DNA of 32,000 nucleotides from Pyrolobus fumarii 1A (GCF_000223395.1 NC_015931.1:270001-302000); one strand, 5' to 3'. Positions 17,071-31,168 are shown, counted from the stretch's first letter. Notes: generated by a model not told the origin, from the letters alone. Made by a program: numbers and translations.

Positions 17071-17084
17071 CCAACCGTGGTTGG
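17071..17084. repeat. Palindrome family member, one-mismatch variant CCAACCGTGGTTGG
   Basis: About 130 bp upstream of the integrase pseudogene start, the same relative position as 23996..24007 in element 2. Confidence 0.8.
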
Positions 17085-17087
17085 GCC

Positions 17088-17101
17088 ACGGGCCCGTATG
17101 G
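17088..17101. promoter_or_regulatory. Inverted copy of the CTATACGGGCCCGT motif (ACGGGCCCGTATGG)
   Basis: Contains the 10-bp palindrome ACGGGCCCGT. See 17241, 24458 and 24582. Confidence 0.5.
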
Positions 17102-17240
17102 TATGGGATGCAAGGAAGGACCGGGAACGGGCCATAGATGAGACTGGTATAAGGCCCATGTCCGAGCCAGCTTCACGATTGTGAATCGGTCCCGTAGTCA
17201 GCTTGTATCCGGGTATCATAGATGCTCCCGGATGTAGACT

Positions 17241-17254
17241 CTATACGGGCCCGT
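17241..17254. promoter_or_regulatory. CTATACGGGCCCGT motif (contains 12-bp palindrome TACGGGCCCGTA), candidate operator
   Basis: About 35 nt upstream of the GTG of the element 1 RHH reading frame. An identical 14-mer sits at 24582..24595 upstream of the element 2 RHH gene. Confidence 0.55.
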
Positions 17255-17288
17255 AGTGGGGATGTAAACGGGGCTGGGTTCGCCGTCG

Positions 17289-17544
17289 GTGAGGTTATAC
17301 CTAGATCTCTCTAGGTACGCCGAACTCGAGAGGCTAGCCAGAGAGCGTGGAGTGGCGATACCGCAGCTCTTGAAGAGACTTGTCGGGGATTGGCTTGAGG
17401 GCAGGCTATGCGGGAACAGTGAGGCCTGAACTCTCCGTCGACGAGACTAGGATAGAGCGGTTGGAGAGGCGCTTGGAACTCCTTGAGGAGAAGGTGAAGG
17501 TGCTATTGAGACTGGTAGGTGGCCCCGGTTTTGCTTCAGGTTAA
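17289..17544 (+). pseudogene. Ribbon-helix-helix (CopG-like) gene, frameshifted
   Basis: GTG-MRLYLDLSRYAELERLARERGVAIPQLLKRLVGDWLEGRLCGNSEA-stop (17289..17429). The C-terminal coiled-coil part (SVDETRIERLERRLELLEEKVKVLLRLVGG) continues in another frame to 17544. Homologous to the intact gene 24624..24878. Confidence 0.8.
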
Positions 17545-17581
17545 TGAGGGTAATACAAGGTGTTTTGATCTCCATGGGTAG

Positions 17582-18052
17582 GTGTGCCCAGGTGATGTGC
17601 TGATGGTGAAACGTGAGGATCTCGTGTTGGCGGTTGCGTGGGAGCTTCTCCGGGCGCGTAGGGAGCGGGGGTTGCGTGATCCGGTACCGAGTCTCTATGA
17701 CCTTACTAAGGTGTTGGCGAGGCTCCGCGAGATGGGCGTCGATGTCGGGCTGGAGTTTATCGAGTACAGTCACGGGCCTTACAGCCCCGACCTCGAGCCG
17801 TTCCTCGAGGAATTGAGTGAGAGGGGCCTAGGCGTGTATAGGGTCGATGTCCATATTCCGCGTGCTCCGGTTGGTGTCGACCCAGACTATGCATGGGCCA
17901 TCATAGAGCACCAGTTGTCCGAGAGGGATGCAGACCGCAAGTATGTCCGGAAGAGGTTCGAGCCTCGCGCTGAACCGGGGCAGCTCCCCGGGGAACTCCA
18001 GGAGAAGATACGGGCAGCCGTCCGCGGCTATCTCGAGGAGGCGTCTAGGTGA
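17582..18052 (+). CDS. Hypothetical protein with possible Panacea (DUF4065/SocA-GepA)-like motif (156 aa)
   Basis: LTKVLARLREMG...FIEYSHGPYSPDLEPFLEEL loosely resembles the F-x-W-x-YGPV-x-P-x-hydrophobic-Y core of DUF4065. The likely start is the ATG at 17603. Ends in a TGA that is in frame with the next ORF. Confidence 0.5.
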   Translation: MCPGDVLMVKREDLVLAVAWELLRARRERGLRDPVPSLYDLTKVLARLREMGVDVGLEFIEYSHGPYSPDLEPFLEELSERGLGVYRVDVHIPRAPVGVDPDYAWAIIEHQLSERDADRKYVRKRFEPRAEPGQLPGELQEKIRAAVRGYLEEASR

Positions 18053-18058
18053 CGTGGC

Positions 18059-18937
18059 TTGTACGTTGCAGAGCTGGTGCTGGAGGGCACGCATTACTAT
18101 TGCTCCCGGCTTCTGGCGAGAGCGCAGCACGAGTGGCTCCTTCGCCTCGTGAGGGGTGGCGGGCTCCGTAGCCTTCTCGACGCCGCTGAGAAGGCATACA
18201 AGCTGTTGGATCTGCGTGAGGAGCTGAGAGGCCTAGGCGACATTCGTGTAAGTAGCGCGAAAGACCTCTTCGCACGCATATGCATCGAGGATGATGACGT
18301 TAGACGCCTGGTTGCCTCAGTGGCATCGGCCGTAGGCTACTCGAATATCGTACAGTTTCTGGCTGATCGTCACACGCTGCTCATCCTATACGGGGCTGCT
18401 GTCGGGTGCCACGAGCCCAGCGTATACTGTGTGCTGGAGCCTCGCTTCGAGGTAGAGAACCACGATCTAAGCAAAGAGCTGGAGGGGAAAAGCCTCCTTC
18501 CATACCGCCTCTTCGACCTCCTTGTCGTCGAAGGCAACAGACTACGACTAATCGAGGTCAAGTACATCCTCTCACGCGAAAAGAACCCCCGGGGCACCGT
18601 ACCCGGCGGCACGATGCTAGCCCACCTGGCGTCGTTCGTTGAGAAGCTCGTATCAACGGCACAGCTGCTACACGAGCCGCTGCGCACGGCAGGCTATACT
18701 GTAGAGTACCACTTTGTCGCCATACTCGGCCCCGGCAGGGAGATCAAAAAGAGCGTCTGGAAGCACATCGAGAAAATCACTGGCGCCCTAGAGAGCCTCA
18801 TAGAAGCACCCGTGGAACCACACAATACCCTATACATTGACATAGCGAGAGAAGTCCAGAATGCAAATCCCACGCCACCCTACGCCTACCGGGCAAAGAC
18901 CAAGCAAACCGATCAAAAAAGAGATACGAAGAGATAG
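18059..18937 (+). CDS. Hypothetical protein with PD-(D/E)xK nuclease-like motif (292 aa)
   Basis: EPRFEVE...LFDLLVVEGNRLRLIEVKY gives an E...D-x13-E-V-K pattern typical of the restriction-endonuclease-like fold. TTG start two codons after the upstream TGA, in the same frame. Confidence 0.55.
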   Translation: MYVAELVLEGTHYYCSRLLARAQHEWLLRLVRGGGLRSLLDAAEKAYKLLDLREELRGLGDIRVSSAKDLFARICIEDDDVRRLVASVASAVGYSNIVQFLADRHTLLILYGAAVGCHEPSVYCVLEPRFEVENHDLSKELEGKSLLPYRLFDLLVVEGNRLRLIEVKYILSREKNPRGTVPGGTMLAHLASFVEKLVSTAQLLHEPLRTAGYTVEYHFVAILGPGREIKKSVWKHIEKITGALESLIEAPVEPHNTLYIDIAREVQNANPTPPYAYRAKTKQTDQKRDTKR

Positions 18938-18942
18938 ACAAG

Positions 18943-19002
18943 AGACCGGTGGCATGGCGCGGTGAACGCATCGCGGTGTTTACATTTCGTTTTGAATGGT
19001 TA
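18943..19002 (+). repeat. Conserved intergenic module, divergent copy a
   Basis: agaccggtggcatggcgcggtgaacgcatcgcggtgtttacatttcgttttgaatggttac aligns with copies at 19155..19209 and 25845..25899. Confidence 0.6.
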
Positions 19003-19154
19003 CCCTTGCTGTCCCGATCGTCCCCCGGTGACGGGTGACCGGTTACCCTTGCACCGAGGCATCACCGCAGGCTATGCGGCGGTTACTGGGCCTTACAGTA
19101 CATCTAGACCATACCAGAGGACGAACAGGGAGGATTAGAATGGAAATAAAGGAA

Positions 19155-19209
19155 AGACCGGTGGTATGGTGTCGTAAGGTGCTCGTGTTGTTTTCATTCT
19201 GGTGTTGAC
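19155..19209 (+). repeat. Conserved intergenic module, copy b
   Basis: agaccggtggtatggtgtcgtaaggtgctcgtgttgttttcattctggtgttgac is nearly identical to 25845..25899 in element 2. Confidence 0.75.
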
Positions 19210-19283
19210 TTGACTTTGTGAGGCTTTGGCTGCGAGCCTCTCCCCACATAATACCGCATTGTGATGGTCTCACGGCGTAATGC

Positions 19284-19735
19284 TTAGTGCTGCTCGAGAG
19301 ATCAGCTGGTATCGTGACGACCCTAACGCTCTTACCGAGGTGCCACACCGTCTTGTAAGCCACCTTTACACCGCTGCTCCTCAACTTACTGTACAATAGA
19401 GATAGGCTCTAGTAGCCTAAGCGTCTGGCAGTCTCGCTTGTTAACGCGATAAACTCATCCTTCCTGAAAGCAGCATCTCCCTCGAGCAACTTAGGTAGCT
19501 GCTCCCGGATCTTCTCGAGGAGCGACTTCTCTCCGGCTGTGGCCCTGACCTTCTCTCTGCTCTTCCTCTTCTTGTGTTTCTCCCCCTCTTCAACCGCGGT
19601 TGGAGCACCTCAAGCCTCTCGCACACTATGTGATCATCGCGGTCGACGACCACCACTAGCCTCATGCAACCAGCCCGGATACACCACCTTAGAAGCTTCT
19701 AGGGTATACTCGTGGATCATGTCTCTTCGAGTTGC
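19284..19735 (-). pseudogene. Remnant of the large ATPase gene (C-terminal ~150 codons only; frameshift, internal deletion and a nonsense codon)
   Basis: Nucleotide homology to 25968..~26520. Readable pieces: RLVVVVDRDDHIVCERLEVLQPRL, EKSLLEKIREQLPKLLEGDAAFRKDEFIALTSETARRLGY-stop-SLSLLYSKLRSSGVKVAYKTVWHLGKSVRVVTIP. Element 2 has LGYQSLSQLYSEL, so this is CAG to TAG. The upper boundary is approximate. Confidence 0.85.
19591..19602. repeat. Palindrome family member, core CAACCGCGGTTG
   Basis: Perfect 12-bp palindrome kept inside the ATPase pseudogene. Positional homologue of 26373..26384. Confidence 0.85.
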
Positions 19736-19914
19736 CCACAGCTTCCTCGCGGAGGACATCGCTCATGTATTATTATAGGGGTTTAAGTGTGATGAATGCC
19801 GGGTTATCTTCGCTGTTGGACTTATCCTCCTCCCCGAGGAGCTATAGATGGGCTGGGTGTCCTCGCCAGATAACGGGGAGGTGGTTGCAGAGAGTTTGTG
19901 CAAAGCTAAGGGTC

Positions 19915-20133
19915 GTGGTGGAGTATGACCGTGAGGCTGACGCAGCATACATTCGGCTCGGGGAGGGGAGGGTGGCAGAGACCATGGAGGTTGAGCCCGG
20001 GGTGTTGCTTGACCTTGACGATGAGGGGAGGGTGATTGGCGTGGAGGTTCTCGAGGCGAGCGTGAGGCTTGGGCGCGTCCTTTCGAGGCTAGAGGAGCTA
20101 ACCGTCAAGGCCAGGACTGATTACCAGGTGTAA
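19915..20133 (+). CDS. DUF2283-family small protein (putative antitoxin-like partner)
   Basis: (V)VEYDREADAAYIRLGEGRVAETMEVEPGVLLDLDDEGRVIGVEVLEAS matches the DUF2283 pattern (YD.E.D.LYI.L...D.D..G.IVGIE.L.AS). GTG at 19915 is preferred over the long ORF starting at 19732. Confidence 0.7.
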   Translation: MVEYDREADAAYIRLGEGRVAETMEVEPGVLLDLDDEGRVIGVEVLEASVRLGRVLSRLEELTVKARTDYQV

Positions 20134-20169
20134 TTATAGCATGTCCAGTCTTGATAGCGGGAGTGTAGT

Positions 20170-20412
20170 TTGAGGATACGCCTAACCAGGCACGCTGAGG
20201 AGAGGCTGAGGGAGAGGGGTATCAGCCTCGAAGAGGTGAAGGTGTGCATCCAAAACCCAGACTATACCGAGGAGTCCAGGGGTGCACTTAGATGCTGGAA
20301 GAGGATGGGCGACAAGTACATCGTCGTGGTGTACCGGGTCGAGTGCAATCAGTGGATAGTTATAACGGCTTACAAGACCTCGAGGAGGCCGCGGCTACCC
20401 GGCAGGCAGTAG
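20170..20412 (+). CDS. DUF4258-family small protein (putative toxin-like partner)
   Basis: RLTRHAEERLRERGISLEEVKVCIQNPD...YIVVVY...IVITAYK matches the DUF4258 pattern (T.HA..RM.ERGIS.EEV). 36 nt downstream of the DUF2283 gene. Confidence 0.7.
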   Translation: MRIRLTRHAEERLRERGISLEEVKVCIQNPDYTEESRGALRCWKRMGDKYIVVVYRVECNQWIVITAYKTSRRPRLPGRQ

Positions 20413-20493
20413 ACACCCACGCCTCTGTCTGCCTTTAGCTTGATTCTTCCGCTCGGCGTCGCGTAAAGTATGATGGTAGAGGCTGCCTCGTCT

Positions 20494-20817
20494 TTATGGT
20501 TGTGAGGCTGTTTGATCGCTAGTGATCCTATACCCAGTGTTGCAGAGGGCATGGTACTCCTGTATCCCATCCTGACCAGTGACTATGTCTCTTCTAGCTC
20601 CGTGGAGACCATGCGACCCGCTGAGTTGGCAAGTGCTATTCTTGCGGTGCACGTTGTACTTCAGAACGTTGGATGCGTCGAAGCCGATATCGTCTACCTG
20701 GCAGTAGGCCCTGAGGATAATAATAAGCTGTCTAATCTGTCTAGTTATTGAGCCAAGAGTGGAGAGATATCGAGTGCAGAATCCGGCCAAGAGGGCATAA
20801 CATAGCGTGTTCGCCAT
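20494..20817 (-). CDS. Hypothetical ORF (107 aa), possibly a gene remnant
   Basis: Only the ORF length supports it. Sits in a lower-GC stretch. A second overlapping ORF (20370..20570) in another frame suggests a frameshifted relic. Confidence 0.25.
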   Translation of the reverse strand: MANTLCYALLAGFCTRYLSTLGSITRQIRQLIIILRAYCQVDDIGFDASNVLKYNVHRKNSTCQLSGSHGLHGARRDIVTGQDGIQEYHALCNTGYRITSDQTASQP

Positions 20818-21128
20818 GTTAGCCCAGCCTCTTTAGGCTCGAGATTGCGAAGATTTTTGTGAAAGTGTAGCTAAGCCGTGCTAAACCATAATTATGTTGT
20901 TGCGATCCGTGTGAGCGGCTGTATGGCTAACAATGGTACTCCTATAGTCTTGTCTGTGAGCGTTGCACTAACAGCCCCCAGGATGTGTGTTTGTCTCTCT
21001 TCGTCGCGCACCCGGCGAGGGCGAGAGGCGATTGAGTGCAATGCGTGGCTCCACAGCCTCCGGTAATACGTTGTATGCTTCGCGTGTTACATTGTTCCTC
21101 CACGGTTCACGCAATAAGCTCCATTAGG

Positions 21129-21830
21129 CTAACCCTTTTCGTACAATCTGTTTTCGACGTAACGCTCTAACAGTTTGCAGAGCGCGTCCCTGCAGAACGC
21201 TCTCTCGGTTAGGCCCAGGTGTTTGGATAGTACGCCCTCGGGGGCAAGAGCATCTATAATCTTCTCCTCTAGTTCTTCATCGACCTTGCCGTGTAGAAGT
21301 TCGTGCATAACCTCGTGGTAGACAAGGTCTACGAGTTGTCTCGGCTCTACGGTCGGGTGTACAAGGGCTGCAATGTATAGGGTTTGGTTGTCGGTGCATA
21401 CCACGCTAGCGTCGAGGCGCGGGGTTAGAGAAGGTGCAAGTATAACCGCTAACCTCTTTAAGCGAGGTTTCTCGCTAAACGCGCCCTGACAGAAGCGTAT
21501 GAATCTACCCCAAGTGTCTGCAAGAATCCTCCTACACGCGTCTTGCAAGCCTTCAACATCGGCTATACTGTCGAAGCTCGCAGCCTCAACGCTATGGAAT
21601 ACACGAGCATGCATCGAGGTGCCAGTATCACACTCTCGGCCCGCTAGGCACTTTGCGAGACTGCACCAAGCTCCTCTACGCTCGGCTTCAAACGCGAACC
21701 TTGAAATAGCGATCGGGTTTTCCACGAGAGTCAACAAGCGTGGATCAACATGCTCGAGATGCGTGCAGAGGTAGGAGACGACATAGAGGGTTGCTAGAGG
21801 ACCGGTAATAAACTGGAGCTCCGGATACAC
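21129..21830 (-). CDS. Putative zinc metallopeptidase-like protein (HExxH), 233 aa
   Basis: LVDLVYHEVMHELLHGKVDEE contains an HExxH motif with a further His three residues later. No other family assignment possible by eye. Preceded by an AT-rich spacer at 21840-22050. Confidence 0.45.
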   Translation of the reverse strand: MYPELQFITGPLATLYVVSYLCTHLEHVDPRLLTLVENPIAISRFAFEAERRGAWCSLAKCLAGRECDTGTSMHARVFHSVEAASFDSIADVEGLQDACRRILADTWGRFIRFCQGAFSEKPRLKRLAVILAPSLTPRLDASVVCTDNQTLYIAALVHPTVEPRQLVDLVYHEVMHELLHGKVDEELEEKIIDALAPEGVLSKHLGLTERAFCRDALCKLLERYVENRLYEKG

Positions 21831-22074
21831 ATTGTCACCAGCAAGCTAGCCTCCTAATACTTGTTATAAAGTAGACCCTAGTGCACTATGCGGGCACTCC
21901 CCAGAGAAACTTAAATTGTAGAAGTTTTAGACTGTGAGGAAACGTTGCCCAGCACATCTAATACATGAGTAACTTTCGGTTCTGAGCTTTGAAGTGAAGA
22001 TAAAGAACGCTAATTATAGTATCTTATGCAACTTTTAAGAAATCGGAAAAACTGTAGGAAATGTGCACAAGTAT

Positions 22075-22218
22075 TCACTGCTTACGCCTCCAACAGTTGT
22101 TAAAACCACGGCGACAACAAGAAGCTGGAAACACGTGCATCCTCTTGACGTGCCTCTTGAGGCTGGATAGTTGCTTGTAGCTGCGCCCGCAGAACGGACA
22201 CACGTACAACCCAACCAC
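22075..22218 (-). CDS. Small C2H2 zinc-finger protein (47 codons from GTG); absent from the ORF track
   Basis: Minus-strand frame reads VVGLYVCPFCGRSYKQLSSLKRHVKRMHVFPASCCRRGFNNCWRRKQ-stop. YVCPFCGRSYKQLSSLKRHVKRMH fits Y-x-C-x2-C-x3-Y-x5-L-x2-H-x4-H exactly. May be a frameshifted remnant, since there is no in-frame ATG. Confidence 0.55.
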   Translation of the reverse strand: MVGLYVCPFCGRSYKQLSSLKRHVKRMHVFPASCCRRGFNNCWRRKQ

Positions 22219-22646
22219 CCCGCTATCGCCGCGAGCCTCTTGAGCCCCTCTCTACGCAACATCGCTGCACTGCCACTATGCTCTAGCAACTCAGGCGCGG
22301 CGAGAGTCCTTACGAGAACATCCAGCTCCTCTCGCCATGGCGGCTGCTAGGGCCAAGACGATCATGTTCCGAGGGTGACAATCACAGCGTCCCTCACTAG
22401 AGGCCCTATCCGTTCCAGTCTCTTCTCAAGCCTCGAGGCTGCCATGAGAAAAGTCAGTGATGCCGAGAGTGAGCAATCCGCGATGAGTGTAACGACTAAC
22501 CCGGCCCCCACTAGTGTGCAGTGTCCGGCGGAAACCTCTCCGGGAGCATCAAGGGCTGAATAAGTCATGCAAGTCAAACCGAACTATAATAAGTACGAAC
22601 ACTCATCAACATGCCGACACCGTCAACATAGATTGAGAAGAATGTA

Positions 22647-22706
22647 TGGCGCCGGGGGCGGGATTTGAACCCGCGCGGGGTTGCCCCCACCGGCTTAGCA
22701 GGTCGG
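22647..22706 (-). tRNA. 3' fragment (anticodon arm to CCA) of a type-II tRNA, anticodon GCU (Ser); att-site remnant, not a complete gene
   Basis: Minus strand: ccgac-ctGCTaa-gccgg, variable arm tgggggcaaccccgc, T arm gcggg-ttcaaat-cccgc, acceptor 3' strand ccccggc, discriminator g, cca. No matching 5' acceptor strand (gccgggg or GU variants) or D arm in the next 200 nt. One A-C mismatch in the anticodon stem. Confidence 0.75.
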
Positions 22707-22859: not shown

Positions 22860-23087
22860 TTGCTTAACGCGCGTGTGGTGTTAACGCGTTATGCGAGGGT
22901 TCAGGTCAAGGTAAAGCCTGGCGGCAAGGAGCAGTACGTTGTAACCCTGCCCGTTGATATTGTCAAGTTGCTTGGCCTGAGGCGTGGCGACTGCCTCTCC
23001 TTCAACGTCATAGACGTTGGTGGTAGGCTCGTGCTGGTTGTCGACCGGAGCCCTGTCGACGCCTGTAGAGGCCCTCCTAGAGGCTAG
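22860..23087 (+). CDS. AbrB/SpoVT-like DNA-binding protein (75 aa)
   Basis: YVVTLPVDIVKLLGLRRGDCLSFNVIDVGGRLVLVV matches the swapped-hairpin AbrB/SpoVT pattern (hydrophobic-T-hydrophobic-P..hydrophobic...LG...GD.hydrophobic...). Lies antisense inside the 3' end of the integrase ORF. Confidence 0.6.
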   Translation: MLNARVVLTRYARVQVKVKPGGKEQYVVTLPVDIVKLLGLRRGDCLSFNVIDVGGRLVLVVDRSPVDACRGPPRG

Positions 23088-23867
23088 GATCTTCTCTATC
23101 GCCTCCTCTATCGTCGAGCCGTTCAGCAACGCCTCTATCCCAGGCTTCATCTCGAGGGTCTTTCTCACCGAGTGCGCCACGTACATCATGTAGTGCTTTA
23201 CTGACACAGGCCTGTGACGTCCGTGAAGAAAGCTGCATAGCAGCTCCTCCTCGCCACTTGCCGTCGCCAAGCAGAGTTCATAGTGGATCTTGCGCAGGCA
23301 GGTTGCCGGTGTCCCTTTGATTTCTCTTCTCGATTCGTAACTATACTCCTTGACAACACGCAACAACCTCTCCTCGAGATCAACCGGGAGTATGATGACG
23401 TTGACGCGCTTCCTGCCTATCGTTGCCTTCAGGTCGTAGACGGCTAGGCCCGCGGCGATCCGCCTCTTCGACGTGAACCTCGGGAGGAGCCACAGGTGTT
23501 TCAAGCGGCTTCCGCTCCACAGGACAGCTTGTTGTAACGTCTGCGCCCACTCCTTCTCGTCGAGCTCCACTCTACCCCAGTCCTCACAGCGCTCCCAGCC
23601 CTCGCCCCTCCTCCCCTCGATCACCCTCCCGCAGGCGAGCCTCTTGAGCGCCAGGAGCCTACGGGCCCGCGCCTCCTCCTCGAGGCTAATCCTCCCTTCG
23701 CTGGCCGCCCACGAGAGCCACTTTGACGCGAGCTTCAGGACCCACTTGTTGCACGGGAGCCTCTCGAACCCGAGAGACTCTATGATGCTGTGGTACCCCT
23801 CCCAGTACCTCATGTAGTCCCGGTAGCTTAGCGGCGCGGTCTTGCGGATGTACTCCTCGAAGCGCAT
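22881..23867 (-). CDS. int: Tyrosine recombinase (archaeal integrase family), 328-codon ORF
   Basis: C-terminal catalytic-type block FLHGRHRPVSVKHYMMY and upstream SGSRLKHLW. Adjacent to the tRNA-derived att. Its N-terminus is duplicated in the pseudogene 16677..16943. The last ~69 codons overlap the AbrB-like gene in antisense and may not be genuine. Confidence 0.8.
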   Translation of the reverse strand: MRFEEYIRKTAPLSYRDYMRYWEGYHSIIESLGFERLPCNKWVLKLASKWLSWAASEGRISLEEEARARRLLALKRLACGRVIEGRRGEGWERCEDWGRVELDEKEWAQTLQQAVLWSGSRLKHLWLLPRFTSKRRIAAGLAVYDLKATIGRKRVNVIILPVDLEERLLRVVKEYSYESRREIKGTPATCLRKIHYELCLATASGEEELLCSFLHGRHRPVSVKHYMMYVAHSVRKTLEMKPGIEALLNGSTIEEAIEKILASRRASTGVDRAPVDNQHEPTTNVYDVEGEAVATPQAKQLDNINGQGYNVLLLAARLYLDLNPRITR

Positions 23868-23995
23868 ACCGGCGTGTACCCGTTGTGTCTGGCCCCCGGT
23901 TGCAGTACACGCTTGAGCCTACTCGCTCCTCAAGCCTTGCGACCTCGTGACACCCGGGTGTATGTGGCGATGGTATCTGCTCCATTCACCGTGTA

Positions 23996-24007
23996 CAACC
24001 GCGGTTG
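23996..24007. repeat. Palindrome family member, core CAACCGCGGTTG
   Basis: Perfect 12-bp palindrome about 130 bp upstream of the integrase start. Confidence 0.85.
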
Positions 24008-24237
24008 GGCAGGTGCGGTGCCGCGTCTCGCCACAAGGCATTCAGGGCAAACGTGTGTGTTACGAGCGTGTTATGCGTCTACACAGGGCTCCTCGGGCGA
24101 CAGGCAACGGCAGTGGGGGACGCTAATCATCCCCTTTCCTCAGAGACGAGCGGAAAGAATTGCCAGTGATACTGTGGTATCACTTGCCTTGCATGCCGAT
24201 AGGGAGCGAGGGTAGGACCAGTGTACCGGGGGGTACA

Positions 24238-24367
24238 CCGGGGCCCGAGTCCCCCGCCCGGGGCAGCCTCGGCCGCTCTGTGAAGAGAGCGTGGACCGGC
24301 CGAACCCGTGAGGAGGGTGCGAACCGATGAGAGCGGCCTTGGCCCCGGGCGGGGCGGGATACCCCGG
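24238..24367. ncRNA. Candidate structured RNA or DNA cruciform: 130-nt GC-rich segment with about 32 nested base pairs
   Basis: Hand-checked pairings: 24238-43 with 24362-67 (6 bp), 24244-47 with 24355-58 (4 bp), 24252-64 with 24342-54 (13 bp), 24271-79 with 24330-38 (9 bp). A small hairpin at 24221-38 lies immediately upstream. Only low-complexity ORFs overlap. Strand unknown. Confidence 0.35.
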
Positions 24368-24420
24368 CTTACGTCTTGCTAGAGTCTTGTCTGTTAAGCG
24401 TTTGGGGTTGTTCACTCCCT

Positions 24421-24434
24421 CCAGCCGCGGTTGG
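24421..24434. repeat. Palindrome family member, one-mismatch variant CCAGCCGCGGTTGG
   Basis: In the integrase-RHH spacer, flanked by t...a like the 16-bp form. Confidence 0.75.
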
Positions 24435-24595: not shown

Positions 24596-24623
24596 CTCTG
24601 GTGCCCTACCTGGGGCTGTCTTC

Positions 24624-24878
24624 GTGCCTCCGGTCAAGTTCTACCTTGATCCCTCCCGTTACGCTGAGCTGGAGAGGTTGGCGAGGGAGAGGGGTACGAC
24701 GATCCCCCAGCTTGTCAAGCGGCTCGTCGAGGATTGGCTCGAGGGCAGGCTGTGTGCCGGCACCGGGGCCAGACCCGGGCACAGTGTCGACGAGGCTAGG
24801 CTCCGTGAGTTCGAGAGACGCCTCGAACTCCTAGAGGAGACCGTGAAGGCTCTGCTCAGGATCATAGCGGGGAGGTGA
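24624..24878 (+). CDS. Ribbon-helix-helix (CopG/Arc-like) DNA-binding protein with C-terminal coiled coil
   Basis: VKFYLDPSRYAELERLARERGTTIPQLVKRLVEDWL is a strand-helix-helix RHH layout, followed by EARLREFERRLELLEETVKALLRII. The longest ORF starts at 24534, but the upstream part overlaps the operator-like motif and has no counterpart in element 1. Confidence 0.75.
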   Translation: MPPVKFYLDPSRYAELERLARERGTTIPQLVKRLVEDWLEGRLCAGTGARPGHSVDEARLREFERRLELLEETVKALLRIIAGR

Positions 24879-24885
24879 TATTGTC

Positions 24886-25839
24886 GTGGGCTCGGAGACA
24901 CTCTATGAGTTTACCCGAAGGCTTGTGAGGGAGTCAAAATGGCTTCAGAAGGTGCTTATGATACTAACGTATGCGTCTCTTATAGTGCTGGTGTCGGCAC
25001 TCATCCTGCAAGGCACGTTGCACAGCACGAGCGTATTGGTGGATGTGCTGCAGACGATTATACTGTCGTTGACGCTCCTTCTCACCATACCCCAGTTAAT
25101 CATCACGCCGTACACCGAGTACCTCAAGGTTCTCGAGGAACGGAGGTATAGGCACTGGTCTAGGCTTCGCGAGGCGCTCATAGTGCCACTGGCTAAACTG
25201 ATACTACACGAGAGTCGTTTTAGGGAGAGTTTTGAGGCCGGTTGCTACCTCCCAGTCTGCAGCATGCTAAGACGCTTGATGATCGACCACGGCCTTCAAC
25301 CCTACTACGAGGATCTAGGGAACCACGAGGCTACTCGGGGCCTCTACGAGGCCCTCCGCAGCCTCTGCGGGCCCCTAGACCACGTCTGCGGCTCGGGCCT
25401 CGACGCGGAGATAGAAGATCTCGTGGAAGCTGCGCTGAGGGAGGCTGGCATAGACCCCGGGAAGCCGCCCGGCCCGGCTGTCGAGGAGGCCGTACGCTGC
25501 GCAATCCACGTGGCAGCGCCTCAGGCCGCTGCGTTCATGCGGGGAGAAGACTGGCTCCGGGCTCTAAAGCAGCGCATCGTAGACGAACTCACCAGAACCA
25601 TGCCAAGCTGCACAACGACGGATGTAACAGTCGTTGGCGACCCTCTACTGCCGCGCGAGAAGGCCGAAGAAATAGCAGAGAGGATAGTCGAGAAGATCAG
25701 GAAGAGCCACCTACACGAGAGGCTCAAAGAGCTATACAGGAAGCTACGCGAAGAGCTAAACAGGGCGCTACTCTACGAGACACTTACCGACGACTGCCCC
25801 TACACGCTACCAGAGGCCAAGAAGAGCAAGAAGAGATAG
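24886..25839 (+). CDS. Membrane protein (two N-terminal TM helices) with unassigned cytoplasmic domain, 317 aa
   Basis: GTG start 8 nt after the RHH stop (operon-like), with GGAGG 11 nt upstream. Hydrophobic segments LMILTYASLIVLVSALIL and ILSLTLLLTIPQLII. Basic C-terminal tail. Confidence 0.6.
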   Translation: MGSETLYEFTRRLVRESKWLQKVLMILTYASLIVLVSALILQGTLHSTSVLVDVLQTIILSLTLLLTIPQLIITPYTEYLKVLEERRYRHWSRLREALIVPLAKLILHESRFRESFEAGCYLPVCSMLRRLMIDHGLQPYYEDLGNHEATRGLYEALRSLCGPLDHVCGSGLDAEIEDLVEAALREAGIDPGKPPGPAVEEAVRCAIHVAAPQAAAFMRGEDWLRALKQRIVDELTRTMPSCTTTDVTVVGDPLLPREKAEEIAERIVEKIRKSHLHERLKELYRKLREELNRALLYETLTDDCPYTLPEAKKSKKR

Positions 25840-25844
25840 ACGAG

Positions 25845-25899
25845 AGACCGGCGGCATGGTGCTGTGAGGTGCTCGCGTTGTTTTCATTCTGGTGTTGAC
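25845..25899 (+). repeat. Conserved intergenic module, copy c
   Basis: agaccggcggcatggtgctgtgaggtgctcgcgttgttttcattctggtgttgac. Lies between convergent genes. Contains a T-rich run (ttgttttcattc) on the plus strand. Confidence 0.75.
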
Positions 25900-25900
25900 T

Positions 25901-25958
25901 CGTGAGGCCTCGGTCGCGACCACCTCGCAGCATAATAACGTATTGTGAGGGCCTCACG
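25901..25958. other. Hairpin with 9-bp perfect stem (cgtgaggcc / ggcctcacg) and 40-nt loop
   Basis: 25901-25909 is complementary to 25950-25958. Lies between the stop codons of the convergent genes. A weaker equivalent exists in element 1 (19218-19275). Confidence 0.4.
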
Positions 25959-25967
25959 GTGCATAGT

Positions 25968-28900
25968 CTACTGCTGCTCGAGGAGCTTGGCGGGTAGCGC
26001 GACGACCCTAACACTCCTGCCCCGGTACCACACCGTCTTGTAGACAGCCTCAATGCCGCTGTTTCTTAGCTCGCTGTACAGCTGGGATAGGCTCTGGTAG
26101 CCTAGGTGTTTGACAGCCTCGCTCGTCAGCGCGATAAACTCCTTCTTCCTAAAGGCCGATCCCTCCTCGAGGAGCCTTGGCAGCTCATCCAGGATCTTCT
26201 CGAGTATAGACTTCCCTCCAGCTTTGGCTTCGACACTCTCTCCTTGTACCTTGGAGGCTTCCTCCTCTTCACCCTCTGCTCCAACCGCGGTTGGAACCAC
26301 TCTCACCTCCAGCGTCTCGAGAAGCTCAGCCAAGAGGTCTGGGTCGGCTCCTAGGGCTGCAGCAACCCGGTTCAACCGCAGTTGGAGCACCCGCAGTCTC
26401 TCCTCGACGACCCCAGGATCCCGGTCGACGACGATCACCAGCCTTCCGCAGCCTGCCCTGACGCAGCGCTTGAGGAGCTTCAGGGTATACTCGTGCGTCA
26501 TGTGCCTCTCCGGGTCGCTAACCACCTCGACGCAGAGAGCCTCACCCCAGTGCTCGTCGTCCAGGGGCTTCAGGGCGACGATATCCGGCCTATCCTCGCC
26601 ACCGGCCTTGTCAACCACGACATAGTAGCCTCTCTCGGCGAGCTCCTCCGCGATAGACCTGATGGCCTCGCGGTGCCACCCGCCGCCGTGCCTCGTCGAG
26701 AAGTCTAGTAGCTCCTCGCCCCTAGAGGTTAGGATGAGCTGCTCTCCCTTAAGCTCGAGGAACCCCCTCTGCCGGAGAGACTCTACGACCTGAGCTGCCC
26801 TCACCAGCCCAAGCTGCTCCGCAAGCCTACCCAGGGTCAAACCGCTCTTCTCGACCTGAACAAGGATCCTCCATTCTAGTGGCGACACCGGGGCCTCGAC
26901 GCTAACCCTCTCTGTCGACACCGGCGCGCCGTGGCGCCCGAGGCTCTCCTCGATCCTAGACCTGACAACCGGGTCGTCTAGGTAGGGGTTGCCTCTGCCC
27001 AGCTCCACGGGTATGTAGGGCGCCCTGAGGGTGAATGGTCGTAGCGTCGTCTTCCCGACTCTTATGCGCGCTATGAACGTGTAGTCGGGGAGGTTGATCA
27101 GGTCGTGGTCGGTGGCGTAGGGCTCGTATAGCTTCCTAAGCTCCCTGGCAGAGACAAGGCCGACCTGGAAGGTGAACACGTGCTTGGCCAGCTCGTAGAG
27201 CGCGGCACGCAGCCTCTCGGGGAGCTGCCTGGGATACTGGGTCATGGCGACCAGGAACACGCGGAACTTCCGGGTCTCCGCCATCATCTGCGCTATGAGC
27301 CTCGCCAACGCCGGCGACACGAAGTTGTGAAGCTCGTCGACAAAGACGAATGCTGTTGGTCTATCCTCCTCGCCGCGCTCGCCGCGCGCGTAGGCCGCCG
27401 CAAAGATCCTCGAGAGTATCAGGGAGCCGAAGAAGTTGAGGCTCTCAGTACCCTTCAGGGCACCCATGTTAACGACAACAATGTAGCCATTGTCGAGGGC
27501 CCAGCCTAGGTCAACCGTGGAGCGTTTGGCCTCCACGAACGGCCTTATCAACGGGTCCAGGGTGAACTTCCCGAGCTTGTTGAGAACCGACTGGACCGCA
27601 TCCGGCGCCTTCTTCAAGAGCGCGGGGTACTGCTCCTCCCAGAACTCTGCCACCTCATCATCCTCCACGTACTCTAGGAACCTTGCACGAGTCTCCTCAT
27701 CGACGAACACGCGGTACACGTCGCTAAGGCTGTAGGAGCCTGGCGGCGCGCTCAACACAAGCTTAACCGCCATCCTCATCAGGTGCTCGGTTCTCGGGCC
27801 CCAGAACCTCTGAAAGTATGCAGCAACCGCCCCCAGGAAAGTCTCCTGGAGCTTGTCGCGCTCGGCGGGCTCCCGGTACTCGAGGAAGTTGATCTTAACC
27901 ACGCGGCCATAATACTCGACCGTGCGCGGATCGATGTAGACGAGCCTATCGACACACTCCTCCGGGAGGCTCTTAACCAGCTTAAGCGCGTCATCGCCGT
28001 TAGGATCGATGTATACTATTGAGGTTCTACCGCAGCCCTCGGCCGCAAGCAGAGAGAGCATAAGGTAACGCGCGTAGCTAGACTTGCCGGCGCCGGTAGT
28101 CCCGAAGATGGCCTTGTGTGCACGCGAGAACTCGGAGACAGGAAGGCCGTACGCGGTGCCCTCGAACAAGCCTAGCGGCACGACGCGCCTGCCGCCCACA
28201 AGCCTCCTCAGGTCATCGAAGCTAAGCTCCCCCGGAAGCTCCCCGATCTTCACGATCTCGGGCGGCGGCTCTAAGACAGCGATGCCGAGGCGAACCGGGA
28301 GGCTCGGCACGGGCCTCGGCACGTTGACGAGAGCCGCAAGCTCCTTGGGTGTTAGGACTGGTAGCCTCTTGTCCCTGAAGAAGACGCCCAGATGCTCAAC
28401 CTCTCTTCTCCTAATCCTCTCGAGCATCTTCTCGTCAAGCCTCTTGATCCTACAGACTATGTTGTTGTAGTGGAACTGGTGGAAGGCCTCGCAGACACGC
28501 TCCACCTTACCCTTATCATCTGCGACCACCCTGACGGCGACAGCGTAGAGACGGTGCATGAGCTTAGCCTCAGCCTGCCTAACCTCCTCGTTCTCGACGG
28601 GCAGCAGATGCCGCTGCATCATGTAATGCTGGCGGCGCATCAACTCGTCATACGGGCTGTACGACGGGTCTATCAGGTCCAGCAGCTCCCTAACAACCAT
28701 CTTGACCGTCGACTCTCCACCCCCACGCCTCCTGTTATACACCCACTCTGCGATCACGCTCTTTGCCCGAGGCTCGTGCTCCCAGCATATCTGGACGAAG
28801 ACACCAGGCTCAACAGCATCGATCCACAATGCGGCTGTGTTTATGCTCACGGGCTTCTTCTCGGTGTGCTTGAAGAGCGGGTGGTAGAAACCCCTCTCAA

Positions 28901-29189
28901 GCCTCCCGACACCCACCCAGCCCCTGCTCGGAGGCTCCGGGGGCCTAGCCTCGACGACAACCAGCCTACCCTCGAAGAGATCCTGCAGAGCCTTCTTCAC
29001 GCCACCAGCCTCACCCTCAGCAACCAGCAGGTACAAGCGGAGATGCCTACCGTCGTGCACCACCTCGAAGCAGCCACGATGAAGCCTGGCCAAGAGATGC
29101 TCCAGGGCAAGAGGCTCCGGGTCGATCTCGGGATGCGGGAGAAGCTCCAGAGCCCTGAACCTCCACACGTTGCCCTGTCTACCGAGCAA
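25968..29189 (-). CDS. Large P-loop ATPase (HerA/FtsK/VirB4-VirD4-like) fused to a wHTH and a restriction-endonuclease-like C-terminal region (1073 aa)
   Basis: Walker A FGTTGAGKSS (about 28081-28110). Walker B AFVFVDELHNF (about 27330-27356). MTQYPRQL block. wHTH-like LEWRILVQVEKSGLTLGRLAEQLGL...LRQRGFLEL. GEDRPDIVALKP...ALCVEVVSD (about 26517-26600) looks like a PD-(D/E)xK fold, but the canonical Lys is not evident. TTG start. Confidence 0.8.
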   Translation of the reverse strand: MLGRQGNVWRFRALELLPHPEIDPEPLALEHLLARLHRGCFEVVHDGRHLRLYLLVAEGEAGGVKKALQDLFEGRLVVVEARPPEPPSRGWVGVGRLERGFYHPLFKHTEKKPVSINTAALWIDAVEPGVFVQICWEHEPRAKSVIAEWVYNRRRGGGESTVKMVVRELLDLIDPSYSPYDELMRRQHYMMQRHLLPVENEEVRQAEAKLMHRLYAVAVRVVADDKGKVERVCEAFHQFHYNNIVCRIKRLDEKMLERIRRREVEHLGVFFRDKRLPVLTPKELAALVNVPRPVPSLPVRLGIAVLEPPPEIVKIGELPGELSFDDLRRLVGGRRVVPLGLFEGTAYGLPVSEFSRAHKAIFGTTGAGKSSYARYLMLSLLAAEGCGRTSIVYIDPNGDDALKLVKSLPEECVDRLVYIDPRTVEYYGRVVKINFLEYREPAERDKLQETFLGAVAAYFQRFWGPRTEHLMRMAVKLVLSAPPGSYSLSDVYRVFVDEETRARFLEYVEDDEVAEFWEEQYPALLKKAPDAVQSVLNKLGKFTLDPLIRPFVEAKRSTVDLGWALDNGYIVVVNMGALKGTESLNFFGSLILSRIFAAAYARGERGEEDRPTAFVFVDELHNFVSPALARLIAQMMAETRKFRVFLVAMTQYPRQLPERLRAALYELAKHVFTFQVGLVSARELRKLYEPYATDHDLINLPDYTFIARIRVGKTTLRPFTLRAPYIPVELGRGNPYLDDPVVRSRIEESLGRHGAPVSTERVSVEAPVSPLEWRILVQVEKSGLTLGRLAEQLGLVRAAQVVESLRQRGFLELKGEQLILTSRGEELLDFSTRHGGGWHREAIRSIAEELAERGYYVVVDKAGGEDRPDIVALKPLDDEHWGEALCVEVVSDPERHMTHEYTLKLLKRCVRAGCGRLVIVVDRDPGVVEERLRVLQLRLNRVAAALGADPDLLAELLETLEVRVVPTAVGAEGEEEEASKVQGESVEAKAGGKSILEKILDELPRLLEEGSAFRKKEFIALTSEAVKHLGYQSLSQLYSELRNSGIEAVYKTVWYRGRSVRVVALPAKLLEQQ
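26280..26295. repeat. Palindrome family member, perfect 16-bp TCCAACCGCGGTTGGA
   Basis: Inside the ATPase coding sequence, translated PTAVG on the minus strand. Confidence 0.9.
26373..26384. repeat. Palindrome family member, one-mismatch variant CAACCGCAGTTG
   Basis: Inside the ATPase coding sequence. Positional homologue of the perfect copy at 19591..19602 in element 1. Confidence 0.7.
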
Positions 29190-29267
29190 CCCGGGGCCCC
29201 GCCTGGGAGGCGTGTCAACCGCAGTGGGCGCGGAGCATCACGGATCCCAACACCCGTTAGCTTAGGC

Positions 29268-29283
29268 TCCAACCGCGGTTGGA
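29268..29283. repeat. Palindrome family member, perfect 16-bp TCCAACCGCGGTTGGA
   Basis: Intergenic. Lies 1 nt below the stop end of the AbrB-like gene 29285..29500 and about 80 nt upstream of the ATPase start. Confidence 0.9.
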
Positions 29284-29284
29284 C

Positions 29285-29500
29285 CTATCCTCCTTTCCCG
29301 CTCTCGGCATCCTCGTACACAGGCTCTAGCAAGATCCTCCCAGTCTCCTCGTCTAGGCACACCCTGTAAGCCACTATCCCGAGCTTCTCGACGAGATAGA
29401 GGGGGACCCTGACCTTCACGTAGGAGTCCCTCCTCTTCCTTCCTCGCCAGGTCTTCGTGGTGAGCGTCAGCTTCACAATCCTCTCGCCGCTGCACCGCAA
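29285..29500 (-). CDS. AbrB/SpoVT-like small DNA-binding protein (71 aa from TTG; an alternative GTG start at 29476)
   Basis: SYVKVRVPLYLVEKLGIVAYRVCLDEETGRILLEP has the same layout as the AbrB-like ORF 22860..23087. Immediately upstream of the ATPase on the same strand. Confidence 0.5.
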   Translation of the reverse strand: MRCSGERIVKLTLTTKTWRGRKRRDSYVKVRVPLYLVEKLGIVAYRVCLDEETGRILLEPVYEDAESGKGG

Positions 29501-29517
29501 GGCAGCAGCCCCGAGGG

Positions 29518-29931
29518 GTGTACACCCGCAGAGGCTTTAAACCACCACGTAGGGCGTACACCCCACGGTGGCGGGGCTTGGCCGAGGAGAGGCGCGACAA
29601 AACCCAGGTGTACCTCGAGCGGGCAAAGAGCCTAGAGGAGAAGGCGAGGTCGACGTTCAACATGGGGTTTGTCGCCCTAGGCTCCATGCTCGTGCTCGCA
29701 AAATTCCTGAAGGATGTGATCGCACAGACGATCGTCATACTCCTGGGGCTGGGTGTCGCCGGGGTAGCTGTGCTGCAAGCTGCTATAATGAGCCGGGACG
29801 CCGAGAGGATATGGGAGAGGCTGTTGAGAGACCCGAGCCCCTACCCCAAGCTCACACTCATACAGGGGATCCTCCTGCTCGCCATCGGGGTGGCGGCGCT
29901 CATCCTAGCACTCCTCGGCCTCTGGAGGTGA
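29518..29931 (+). CDS. Membrane protein (about three TM helices), 137 aa
   Basis: Hydrophobic segments FVALGSMLVLAKFL, IVILLGLGVAGVAVLQAAI and LIQGILLLAIGVAALILALLGL. Stop overlaps the GTG start region of the next gene. The real start may be an internal Met. Confidence 0.5.
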   Translation: MYTRRGFKPPRRAYTPRWRGLAEERRDKTQVYLERAKSLEEKARSTFNMGFVALGSMLVLAKFLKDVIAQTIVILLGLGVAGVAVLQAAIMSRDAERIWERLLRDPSPYPKLTLIQGILLLAIGVAALILALLGLWR

Positions 29932-29935
29932 TAGT

Positions 29936-31168
29936 GTGAAGAGGCTCACGGCGCTCCTACTCCTGGCTCTCCTCGCCCTCGCCGCCCTCCTCCTCTACAC
30001 GCACGCCGCCGGGACCAACCGCGGTTGGACACCAGACCTGAAACCCGGCACCACCATCACCCTCGAGGAGATCAAACACCTTGAGGAGAGCGGCTGGAGG
30101 CTGGTTAGAACCCCGCTCTACAAGGGCGTGTTTCACGACGCGCCTTGCCCGTCCGGCCTCCTGCTAGCCTACAAGCCTGGGCCTCATAACGGCCCTCTAG
30201 GGGTCTCGTGGAGGACGGCAGACTGGGTCTACACGACGAGAACAGTAAAGCTGAGCAGCGTCGCCAACGCTACGATCTACTACCGCGCGAGACCCACAGC
30301 CACAGTCTACGCCACGAGCATAGCCTACTGCCTCGAGAAGATCAACAACACCGCCTACAGGGTGACAAACTACCTGAAACCAGCATACTACGCAAAGAGC
30401 TACACACTAGAGCCACACAGGATAGTCGTCAAGGTGGACCACGAGGCGTTCGAGAAGCTGCTGAGGAGAGAGTGGGTCGAGTCTTACGTGGCTAAGCTTC
30501 GGGTTTCTCCAAGGCTCGCCGAGGAGAGTGTTAACGACGTGCGTATCGTTGGCTGGTTTCGCGTGGAGAGGCGCGTCTGCGGGGTCGATGTTGTCGTCGA
30601 GGCTCCGAGGCTTAGAGTGGTTTACGGGGATCCCGCCTACACCTACCCCAACAGCTACCTGCGGCACGTCATAGTGTCGTTGGCGAGGTTCATGTGGGAG
30701 CTGCGCGTCTGCACACCCGACGAGGCGGTTAAGGCGAGCTACTGGATCATCTACGGCGGCGACGACACCGACCCATATCCGCCAAACTGGTTGATCAATG
30801 GCGGTGTATGTTGGCAATGGTCTGAGTGGACATTCAGGGCACTGAGGATGCTAGGCTTGCCAGTCTACCTCCTCTACACCCCCGGTAACCCGCCACACGA
30901 GTCTACACTCCTCTGTAGAGAGAGACCAGTGGCCTACCGCGGTTGGTGCTATGGGCTCCTTGCCGTAAACCCGGAGAGTGGGAAGAGGATCATCTGCTGG
31001 CTCTTCGACGACACGGGTTATGTGACAAGCCTTTGGAGGGAGATTGCGAAGATAGGCGCGAGGGTGCATCTAGGCAAGCAGGCATATCCGCCCGAGATAT
31101 ACAGGGTTGTAAAAACATGGGTGGGGTGTAGGATCCCAAGCGACGCTTTCAACGCTACGGCGGGATGA
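29936..31168 (+). CDS. Secreted transglutaminase-like (papain-fold Cys-His-Asp) protein, 410 aa
   Basis: Signal peptide MKRLTALLLLALLALAALLLYTHA. GGVCWQWSEWTFRALRMLGLPVYLLY...PHESTLL...WLFDDTGY resembles the transglutaminase-core pattern G.C..FS..F.ALLR.LGIP.R.V...H.W.E...FD.T. Confidence 0.5.
   Translation: MKRLTALLLLALLALAALLLYTHAAGTNRGWTPDLKPGTTITLEEIKHLEESGWRLVRTPLYKGVFHDAPCPSGLLLAYKPGPHNGPLGVSWRTADWVYTTRTVKLSSVANATIYYRARPTATVYATSIAYCLEKINNTAYRVTNYLKPAYYAKSYTLEPHRIVVKVDHEAFEKLLRREWVESYVAKLRVSPRLAEESVNDVRIVGWFRVERRVCGVDVVVEAPRLRVVYGDPAYTYPNSYLRHVIVSLARFMWELRVCTPDEAVKASYWIIYGGDDTDPYPPNWLINGGVCWQWSEWTFRALRMLGLPVYLLYTPGNPPHESTLLCRERPVAYRGWCYGLLAVNPESGKRIICWLFDDTGYVTSLWREIAKIGARVHLGKQAYPPEIYRVVKTWVGCRIPSDAFNATAG
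30015..30028. repeat. Palindrome family member, perfect 14-bp CCAACCGCGGTTGG
   Basis: Inside the secreted-protein gene just after the signal peptide, translated NRGW on the plus strand. This is a different frame from the ATPase copy. Confidence 0.9.
30933..30946. repeat. Palindrome family member, one-mismatch variant CCTACCGCGGTTGG
   Basis: Inside the secreted-protein gene, translated YRGW. Confidence 0.7.

Follow-up and report, generated by a model that had tools for sequence, protein, structure and literature searches.

What reads a palindrome that recurs throughout an integrated element of a hyperthermophilic archaeon, and what does the element use it for? We consider this question in Pyrolobus fumarii 1A, which grows above 100 °C, using a 32,000-nucleotide stretch of its chromosome (GCF_000223395.1, NC_015931.1:270001-302000), the whole of which we call the window. 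The window holds two related elements, a decayed copy A (~16.7–22.6 kb) and an intact copy B (from 22.64 kb on), and both carry the palindrome gcTCCAACCGCGGTTGGAgc. To our knowledge, how crenarchaeal conjugative-type elements recognize and mobilize their own DNA is unexplained, and they have neither a defined relaxase nor a defined origin of transfer. We find that the palindromes are very probably protein-recognition sites maintained by selection on the DNA, and we tentatively nominate the C-terminal tail of a 1073-amino-acid (aa) ATPase of the element as the best candidate for the protein that reads them.

Dispersed copies of one palindrome

We searched the window with the pattern CCAACCGCGGTTGG, allowing up to two mismatches, and took the expectation from 100 dinucleotide-preserving shuffles. 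This returned nine matches against 0.09 expected, a number reached in 0 of the 100 shuffles. The matches start at 17071, 19590, 23995, 24421, 26281, 26372, 29269, 30015 and 30933 (Table 1), so that every copy is confined to 17–31 kb, and the host DNA of the window (1–16,700) holds none at this stringency. Those at 26281, 29269 and 30015 are perfect 14-mers, the first two extending to the 16-mer TCCAACCGCGGTTGGA; five others (17071, 19590, 23995, 24421 and 30933) have one mismatch, and 26372 has two. The 10-mer AACCGCGGTT occurs five times in the window where 0.01 occurrences are expected. An earlier description of this DNA made without any database search, the sequence-only reading, had listed these copies, and the pattern search bore out every coordinate and sequence that it gave. 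The shuffles likewise agree with its view that such a 14-mer is unlikely to arise by chance, and its count of five 10-mers, with none in the chromosomal part, was exact. Because 17071 is a paralogue of 23995, and 19590 a paralogue of 26372 and/or 26281, the nine matches amount to ~7 independent positions.

Both integrase copies have a palindrome 128 bp upstream (17071 and 23995), close to the ~130 bp first estimated, and, as first described, others lie upstream of the ribbon-helix-helix (RHH) gene (24421) and between the AbrB-like gene and the ATPase start (29268). The copy at 19590, said to survive in a pseudogene, indeed keeps a perfect 12-bp core in the ATPase remnant of A. Copies inside genes had been placed in two reading frames; the case is stronger than that, since they occupy all three (PTAVG, QLRLN and NRGW/YRGW).

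When 19 sites are aligned and symmetrized, the resulting logo is symmetric over 16–20 bp, with an almost invariant 12-bp core (CAACCGCGGTTG) and with 7-bp arms (gcTCCAA and TTGGAgc) on either side of a central 6-bp CCGCGG. Half-sites on their own show no enrichment (2 observed, ~1.8 expected), so that the recognition unit is the whole palindrome, which argues for a two-fold symmetric reader and accords with the original suggestion that a dimeric DNA-binding protein would suit it.

Further sites lie beyond the end of the window. A P. fumarii read-assembly contig (L064) carries B on to window-equivalent position 35,084 and adds four copies, at window-equivalent 33490, 33561, 33632 and 33815, all within a 472-bp intergenic region upstream of a 748-aa gene. 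This brings B to 11 sites over ~10 kb, of which seven are intergenic in an element with 12% intergenic DNA (P = 9e-5). Three of the four additional sites (33490/33561/33632) are exactly 71 bp apart; they have ~18 bp in common and are separated by non-homologous spacers. We rejected a CRISPR mini-array as an explanation of this triple: CRISPR repeats share at least 23 bp, Tandem Repeats Finder reported no tandem repeat there, and there are no cas genes.

The sites in related elements

The ATPase family is tiny, with 13 matches among 5.8 billion proteins, and its known relatives are short contigs from metagenome-assembled genomes (MAGs). Related elements occur in the MAGs GCA_054016795.1, GCA_015521195.1 and GCA_054017235.1. 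Three related MAG elements have the same palindrome at equivalent places. Every palindrome-bearing relative that has the ATPase gene carries sites both upstream of that gene and in its 3' end; these are L003 and L001, with ATPases 84% and 70% identical to that of B, and L001 has a further copy ~100 nt into its homologue of the 410-aa gene. Apart from the palindrome, its sole conserved block, the intergenic DNA upstream of the ATPase is unalignable among B, L001 and L003.

Individual sites differ in how well they are kept. The site at 26280–26295 is perfect in L003 and has one mismatch in L001, and that at 30015–30028 is perfectly kept in L001 and in a third relative, L256. Site 26372 has one mismatch in L003, outside the 12-bp core, and is lost from L001, which nevertheless keeps the peptide PRLN through other codons; sites 30933 and 24421 have no counterpart in L001. 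At the two coding sites compared between B and L001, nine of the ten degenerate codons are identical, against a background of 0.54–0.56. A peptide motif is ruled out as the explanation by the use of three frames, by the intergenic footprint and by the retention of PRLN in L001 without the DNA site. The sequence-only reading had proposed selection on the DNA and not on a peptide, and this proposal is upheld by the three frames, by a footprint that extends across three elements and by codon identity well above the 0.55 background. We also rejected a role at the RNA level: there are no Rfam matches, and the only possible structure, a 5-bp stem with a 4-nt loop, was judged implausible above 100 °C.

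Farther from B the sequence of the palindrome is no longer found. Elements whose ATPases are at most 49% identical lack the dispersed palindrome, as does a distant integrase relative (L258). The earlier suggestion to look for the same or a covarying palindrome in ATPase-bearing relatives was fruitful, as L003 and L001 share it and L002, whose ATPase is 49% identical, has a differing over-represented palindrome, GGGGTGCACCCC, at the ATPase start (three sites in the contig against 0.09 expected). Two of the L002 sites (27–61) adjoin an TATATAAG box in the AT-rich non-coding contig end, and the third (4594–4605) abuts the ATPase start codon. Where the ATPases are 37–45% identical, a search for covarying dispersed palindromes returned nothing beyond two perfect 12-bp palindromes in tandem, spaced at 24 bp (L004 18875/18899, L007 17584/17608 and L008 11017/11041), and we set this pair aside as a different architecture. 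The pair reads TGTCATATGACA, or TGTTATATAACA in L008, covaries in sequence among lineages and lies ~150–190 bp upstream of a ~430-aa gene where one is called (L004 and L008).

Could the palindrome instead be a host-wide repeat, or the site of a host factor of Pyrolobus and its relatives, that is merely dense here? Unrelated repeat families elsewhere in nature do have the identical 12-bp core. A metagenome scan for two 12-bp cores 55–85 bp apart returned 66 loci (L188–L253), all unrelated to the element by tblastx; the families with the core CAACCGCGGTTG are of several kinds, among them CRISPR-like arrays in which the repeat GCCAGCCGCTCCCAACCGCGGTTGGGACATGGGGAA recurs with a 68–70 bp period, tandem repeats of 41 bp that contain TTGCAACCGCGGTTGCAA and, in saline samples, AT-rich repeats. 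Against this explanation, ~40 kb of element DNA holds 21 sites and the host DNA at hand none (16.7 kb of P. fumarii flank and 6.4 kb of host sequence beside L256; P ~5e-4). The sites also accompany the element in each of four genomes or MAGs and are missing from the elements with more distant ATPases or integrases, so we regard a host-wide origin as very improbable. The description of the palindrome as element-restricted holds as far as these two stretches of host DNA go; two of the nine copies first counted are paralogous duplicates. A scan of the whole genome collection for the 14-mer gave only chance single bacterial matches among the at least 120 matches listed, and viral contigs gave 55 single chance matches and no clusters. 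In the literature we found nothing on this palindrome or on this element.

Candidate readers and rearrangements at the sites

We propose that a small clade of elements, which would integrate at tRNA-Ser in Pyrodictiaceae-like hyperthermophiles, has gcTCCAACCGCGGTTGGAgc as its recognition site in cis, and that the whole palindrome is bound by an element-encoded, two-fold symmetric protein module. The most likely module would be the tail of the 1073-aa ATPase, with its winged helix, restriction-endonuclease-fold domain and second winged helix. By analogy with the transfer locus clt, which acts in cis and is read by the winged helix of Streptomyces TraB, or with parS or the FtsK orienting polar sequences (KOPS), the sites may mark element DNA for loading of the translocase. 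Tail binding would then serve DNA translocation. We put this forward as a tentative reading, one that we would not yet bet on.

Several features recommend the ATPase. Pfam matches DUF87 (HerA, 9.7e-9) and FtsK_SpoIIIE (6.1e-6) in it, both above cut-offs, and its core is nearest to VirD4/TraD-type coupling proteins of Streptomyces and haloarchaeal plasmids, the plasmid homologues being annotated as type IV coupling proteins. None of the curated NCBIfam cut-offs is reached by the ATPase, and its best PADLOC match, mad8, concerns the core only. In an AlphaFold model of the last 350 aa (predicted local distance difference test score, pLDDT, 80), a first winged helix is followed by an alpha/beta domain, after which a disordered Glu-rich linker leads to a second winged helix. 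In Foldseek searches, the tail winged helices matched TcpK, a winged helix-turn-helix (wHTH) protein that binds the origin of transfer, oriT, as well as MarR proteins, with probability ~1.0 but E values of 2e-3 to 5e-2. When modelled alone (pLDDT 87), the alpha/beta domain gave weak matches to the PD-(D/E)xK proteins Cap4, Can2, PaqCI and MspJI (best E = 1.7e-3, probability 0.99). The restriction-endonuclease fold typically dimerizes on palindromes. The first winged-helix region is near-identical in the three palindrome-bearing ATPases and differs in the others.

A number of observations pull the other way. The tail is singled out by elimination and by co-location. The PD and E residues of its nuclease-fold domain are invariant, yet at the third motif position the palindrome-bearing clade has Val (EVV) where other homologues have Glu (EVE), which makes cleavage doubtful. 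L256 has no ATPase and retains two intact sites, and the distance from site to ATPase start varies (86, 55 and 78 nt). The four-site array is missing from L254, the companion contig of L001, so this array is not a conserved core locus. Known translocase recognition sequences, such as clt with its TraB recognition sequences (TRS), KOPS and the SpoIIIE recognition sequences (SRS), are short, asymmetric direct repeats, whereas a long palindrome confers no polarity. Finally, the strong intergenic bias of the sites suits a transcription factor at least equally well.

Such a factor, the main rival to the ATPase tail, could be the 84-aa RHH protein, an AbrB/MazE-like protein or an unrecognized regulator, and the palindrome would be its operator, through which the integrase gene (int), the RHH operon, the ATPase gene and the 748-aa gene would be jointly repressed or activated, as by the RHH repressor F55 of the fusellovirus SSV1; copies inside genes would then be roadblocks or neutral extras. 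Intergenic sites do lie upstream of four transcription units, and the adjacent sites upstream of the 748-aa gene would permit cooperative repression. Conservation is strong at the centre of the dyad, which would suit a protein that reads DNA through a beta-ribbon, for instance an RHH dimer, judging from what is generally known of RHH–DNA complexes. Moreover, all palindrome-bearing elements for which there is enough sequence have an RHH gene, the ATPase-less L256 among them. What makes us consider an operator somewhat unlikely is that two of the three best-conserved sites lie within genes with no promoter downstream, that the spacing between site and ATPase start codon is variable, and that the RHH and AbrB-like genes have core promoters of another kind.

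The core promoters of these two genes, as deduced from sequence, are without the dispersed palindrome and carry other conserved palindromes instead. The AbrB-like and 117-aa genes are divided by a putative divergent promoter whose GTGTAC(A/G)C palindromes are conserved in L001 (~1540–1600), with flanks that covary (GGGG..CCCC in B, CCAG..CTGG in L001); these palindromes differ from the dispersed one and have the appearance of a classic local operator. A second family, TATACGGGCCCGT(ATA) or CGTATACG, occupies the RHH promoter region and is conserved in A, L001 and L256. Its members lie at 17088, 17240, 24455, 24497 and 24581 in the window and upstream of the RHH and ATPase genes in L001, and they are probably a promoter element or an RHH operator element. 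Because small autoregulated repressors usually bind at their own promoters, the presence of other palindromes there weakens the RHH and AbrB-like proteins as readers of the dispersed sites. The operator role for these proteins offered by the sequence-only reading is accordingly weakened by the GTGTACAC pairs and the TATACGGGCCCGT family at their own core promoters, and it keeps the intergenic bias in its favour.

The palindromes are also places where element DNA has been broken and rejoined. A has a single site (19590) where B has two (26281 and 26372) 91 bp apart, and the intervening DNA is gone from A. In L256, a 4.65-kb reduced element from a different MAG, the body of the 410-aa gene runs straight into the 3' tail of the ATPase gene through one palindrome, and the same structure is present in a separately assembled read-set contig (L257). 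The L256 deletion spans from a 30015-type to a 26281-type site, a distance of 3.7 kb in B that includes most of the ATPase gene, and its partners have nothing in common beyond the ~19-bp site. Since the left flank of L256 is B-like (78% to B versus 65% to L001) and the right flank L001-like (86% to L001 versus 61% to B), the palindrome is a mosaic switch point as well. Site 23995, for its part, is the exact point where homology to B begins in both A and L256; B and L001 have ~420–460 additional bp there, ending near site 24421. These junctions are compatible with a dedicated enzyme or with passive short-homology recombination. Neither the deletion and mosaic junctions nor the 71-bp-phased array beyond the window formed part of the sequence-only reading.

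Within our proposal, the sites would be the sole repeated sequences in the element and the nuclease-fold domain may act on them, so that breakage and rejoining at the sites could give rise to the deletion derivatives and mosaics. A further step would be to see the palindromes as dedicated recombination or cleavage sites for shuffling, resolution or DNA processing, used by the integrase as tyrosine-recombinase core sites, or cut and rejoined by the ATPase nuclease fold. Three rearrangements end at palindromes (the 91-bp loss in A, the 3.7-kb switch in L256/L257 and the 23995 breakpoint), without shared homology past the site in the L256 event. A PD-(D/E)xK-fold domain is at hand, by weak structural match, and 7-bp arms around CCGCGG would fit a tyrosine-recombinase core with its 6–8 bp overlap, in architecture only. 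However, any dispersed repeat of 14–20 bp is a passive hotspot for short-homology recombination that needs no dedicated enzyme, eleven active sites would destabilize the element, whose scanned proteins include no methyltransferase, and the nuclease-fold motif seems degenerate in the palindrome-bearing clade. The sites also keep their position across ~30% sequence divergence, suggesting a function besides excision. We therefore judge dedicated recombination sites to be improbable.

Together these features make the element a compact and testable system, with one motor that has a built-in candidate reader, a sharply defined 16–20 bp site present 11 times and natural deletion and mosaic variants whose junctions fall precisely on the sites. 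Binding by the ATPase tail would establish the palindrome as a sequence through which an archaeal DNA translocase is directed in cis, and would explain the loss and exchange of modules; binding by a small regulator would instead outline a compact regulon, that of an integrated element whose host grows above 100 °C.

Known systems and the rest of the element

The nearest parallel to our proposal comes from actinomycetes. Streptomyces TraB reads its repeats with a C-terminal wHTH domain, through helix alpha-3 (PMC3583192, PMC4447253), and clt of plasmid pWTY27 covers 16 bp of traA, so that clt can overlap a tra 3' end (PMC3583192). Like the TraB/TraA–clt systems of Streptomyces plasmids and of actinomycete integrative and conjugative elements, the Pyrolobus element is integrative, has a single large FtsK/HerA motor with a predicted C-terminal winged helix, carries repeated short motifs that occur also in the motor gene, at its 3' end, and has no relaxase. 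It differs in that clt consists of 7–9 bp direct repeats in one 50–175 bp locus, whereas here palindromes of 14–20 bp are spread over ~10 kb and the only local cluster among them is the group of four, three of which are 71 bp apart, which is not clustering of the clt type. The archaeal ATPase further departs from TraB in having no obvious N-terminal membrane segments (by eye), an extra nuclease-fold domain and second winged helix, and a core nearer to VirD4/TraD.

Bacterial parS with ParB, and the archaeal SegB and AspA systems, resemble the present case in a ~16-bp palindrome with several well-conserved copies in a limited region of coding and non-coding DNA. However, an integrated element needs no partition while it is integrated, and Pfam, NCBIfam and PHROG gave no match to ParA/ParB, SegA/SegB or AspA among the element proteins scanned. 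The parS-like partition role first suggested is thus left with neither a ParA nor a ParB partner in that set.

Two further comparisons come from archaeal integrating elements and conjugative plasmids. The RHH repressor F55 of SSV1 reportedly binds tandem 11-bp repeats that overlap core promoters. On that account the two cases share a small RHH protein encoded beside the integrase and repeated sites upstream of several units, and differ in that here the RHH promoter is without the palindrome and there are conserved intragenic copies. Among Sulfolobus conjugative plasmids, those of the pING/pNOB8 family are said to have several copies of a dispersed, partly palindromic 16-bp motif at recombination borders and at those of deletion variants, together with TraG-like ATPases; we treat this as no more than a lead, and both sequence and hosts differ.

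A pump and a nuclease occur together in Thermus, where ICEth1 encodes the HerA-like TdtA and the restriction enzyme Tth111II, which act in transjugation, the nuclease being proposed to create or recognize multiple entry sites for DNA donation (PMC5365140). Both systems thus combine an FtsK/HerA-type pump on an integrated element with a restriction-type nuclease. The Thermus nuclease is a separate protein and the transfer is generalized and chromosomal, whereas here motor and nuclease fold form one protein, nuclease activity is doubtful and the sites seem confined to the element. Extending this analogy, the 1073-aa protein could be an archaeal equivalent of Streptomyces TraB or Thermus TdtA/Tth111II, a fused coupling-protein/HerA-type pump and site-specific, restriction-endonuclease-like wHTH reader for which the palindromes are multiple entry points, perhaps nicked or cut, allowing double-stranded DNA export without a relaxase, with the sites doubling as crossover points that shuffle modules between co-resident elements; we regard this as a long shot. 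We rejected a type II restriction-modification target (SacII-like, CCGCGG), given that there is no methyltransferase among the element proteins scanned and that CCGCGG is not avoided in the host (7 copies in 16.7 kb).

Table 1. Coordinates of the palindrome copies and other features in the window
Feature	Position	Strand	Remarks
Palindrome CCAACCGTGGTTGG, 1 mismatch	17071..17084		Decayed copy A, upstream of integrase fragment
Palindrome TCAACCGCGGTTGG, 12-bp core perfect	19590..19603		In ATPase pseudogene remnant of copy A
Palindrome ACAACCGCGGTTGG	23995..24008		Intergenic, 128 bp upstream of integrase start, element B
Palindrome CCAGCCGCGGTTGG	24421..24434		Intergenic, ~190 bp upstream of RHH start
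Perfect 16-mer TCCAACCGCGGTTGGA	26280..26295		Within ATPase gene, codons VPTAVG
Degenerate palindrome TCAACCGCAGTTGG, 2 mismatches	26372..26385		Within ATPase gene, codons QLRLN
Perfect 16-mer	29268..29283		Between AbrB-like stop codon and ATPase start, 79 nt upstream of the latter
Perfect 14-mer	30015..30028		Within 410-aa gene, 79 nt past start, codons TNRGW
Palindrome CCTACCGCGGTTGG, 1 mismatch	30933..30946		Within 410-aa gene, YRGW
Recognizable part of decayed copy A	16734..19740		Integrase N-fragment, RHH remnant, ATPase C-terminal pseudogene; identity to B (23.6-26.5 kb) 70-82%
tRNA-Ser-like gene, 3' part	22640..22706	-	Taken as attachment-site copy, left end of B
Integrase open reading frame (ORF) of B	22881..23867	-	Pfam Phage_integr_3
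84-aa ribbon-helix-helix (CopG-type) protein	24624..24878	+	TATACGGGCCCGT motif in its promoter region
1073-aa HerA/FtsK/VirD4-superfamily ATPase, Pyrfu_0327	25968..29189	-	Tail (last 350 aa) at 25968-27020
71-aa AbrB-like protein	29285..29500	-	Upstream of ATPase; AbrB assignment by eye, no Pfam match
Putative divergent promoter, AbrB-like and 117-aa genes	29501..29577		Two GTGTAC(A/G)C palindromes (GTGTACAC pairs) flank TTTAAA/TTATAT box; promoter assigned by eye
410-aa signal-peptide protein gene	29936..31168	+	Two palindrome copies inside

The host genes up to 16.58 kb are ordinary, including those for a P-type ATPase and an FprA-like flavoprotein. The gene order in B is a 75-aa MazE/AbrB-like ORF, the integrase, the 84-aa RHH protein, a 317-aa protein, the ATPase, the 71-aa AbrB-like protein, a 117-aa membrane protein and the 410-aa signal-peptide protein; past the window end follow the 748-aa protein, VapBC and TumE. 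The tRNA-Ser fragment at the left end of B indicates that the two elements stand in tandem, A having lost its left part as far as a point within its integrase gene. The integration site of L256 is an intact tRNA-Ser(GGA) (L256 6413–6500). We rejected an SSV-type integrase that is split by integration, the attachment site being the tRNA-Ser fragment outside int. The 328-aa integrase ORF of B runs, in its C-terminal part, antisense to the 75-aa MazE/AbrB-like ORF (22860–23087, + strand). The L256 integrase is called as 237 aa, convergent with the 75-aa gene, so the P. fumarii int ORF may be a read-through extension.

The int–RHH intergenic region of B contains a GC-rich block (24216–24370; L001 7379–7536) that is 80% conserved in L001, above the neighbouring genes, and is absent from A and L256. 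Its arms, GGGGCCCGAGtCCCCCGCCCGGGGC and GCCCCGGGCGGGGCGGGAtACCCCGG, may form a ~22-bp helix around a variable interior of ~75 nt. Rfam gave no significant match for the block, which may represent a non-coding RNA or a recombination site, or else a cruciform or origin.

Toxin–antitoxin modules occur in both copies: a DUF2283/DUF4258 pair in A (19732–20412), and VapBC (AF2212-like and PIN) with TumE in B (~33.9–35.0 kb window-equivalent; L064 100–1212). The relative L001 has TumE and MJ0235 toxin–antitoxin genes. A 68-nt sequence, GAGATAGACGAGAGACCGG...TTTTCATTCTGGTGTTGACT, lies at the 3' end of the 317-aa gene of B (25833–25900) and twice in A (18931–18998 and 19143–19210), and it has a counterpart in L256 (8626–8741).

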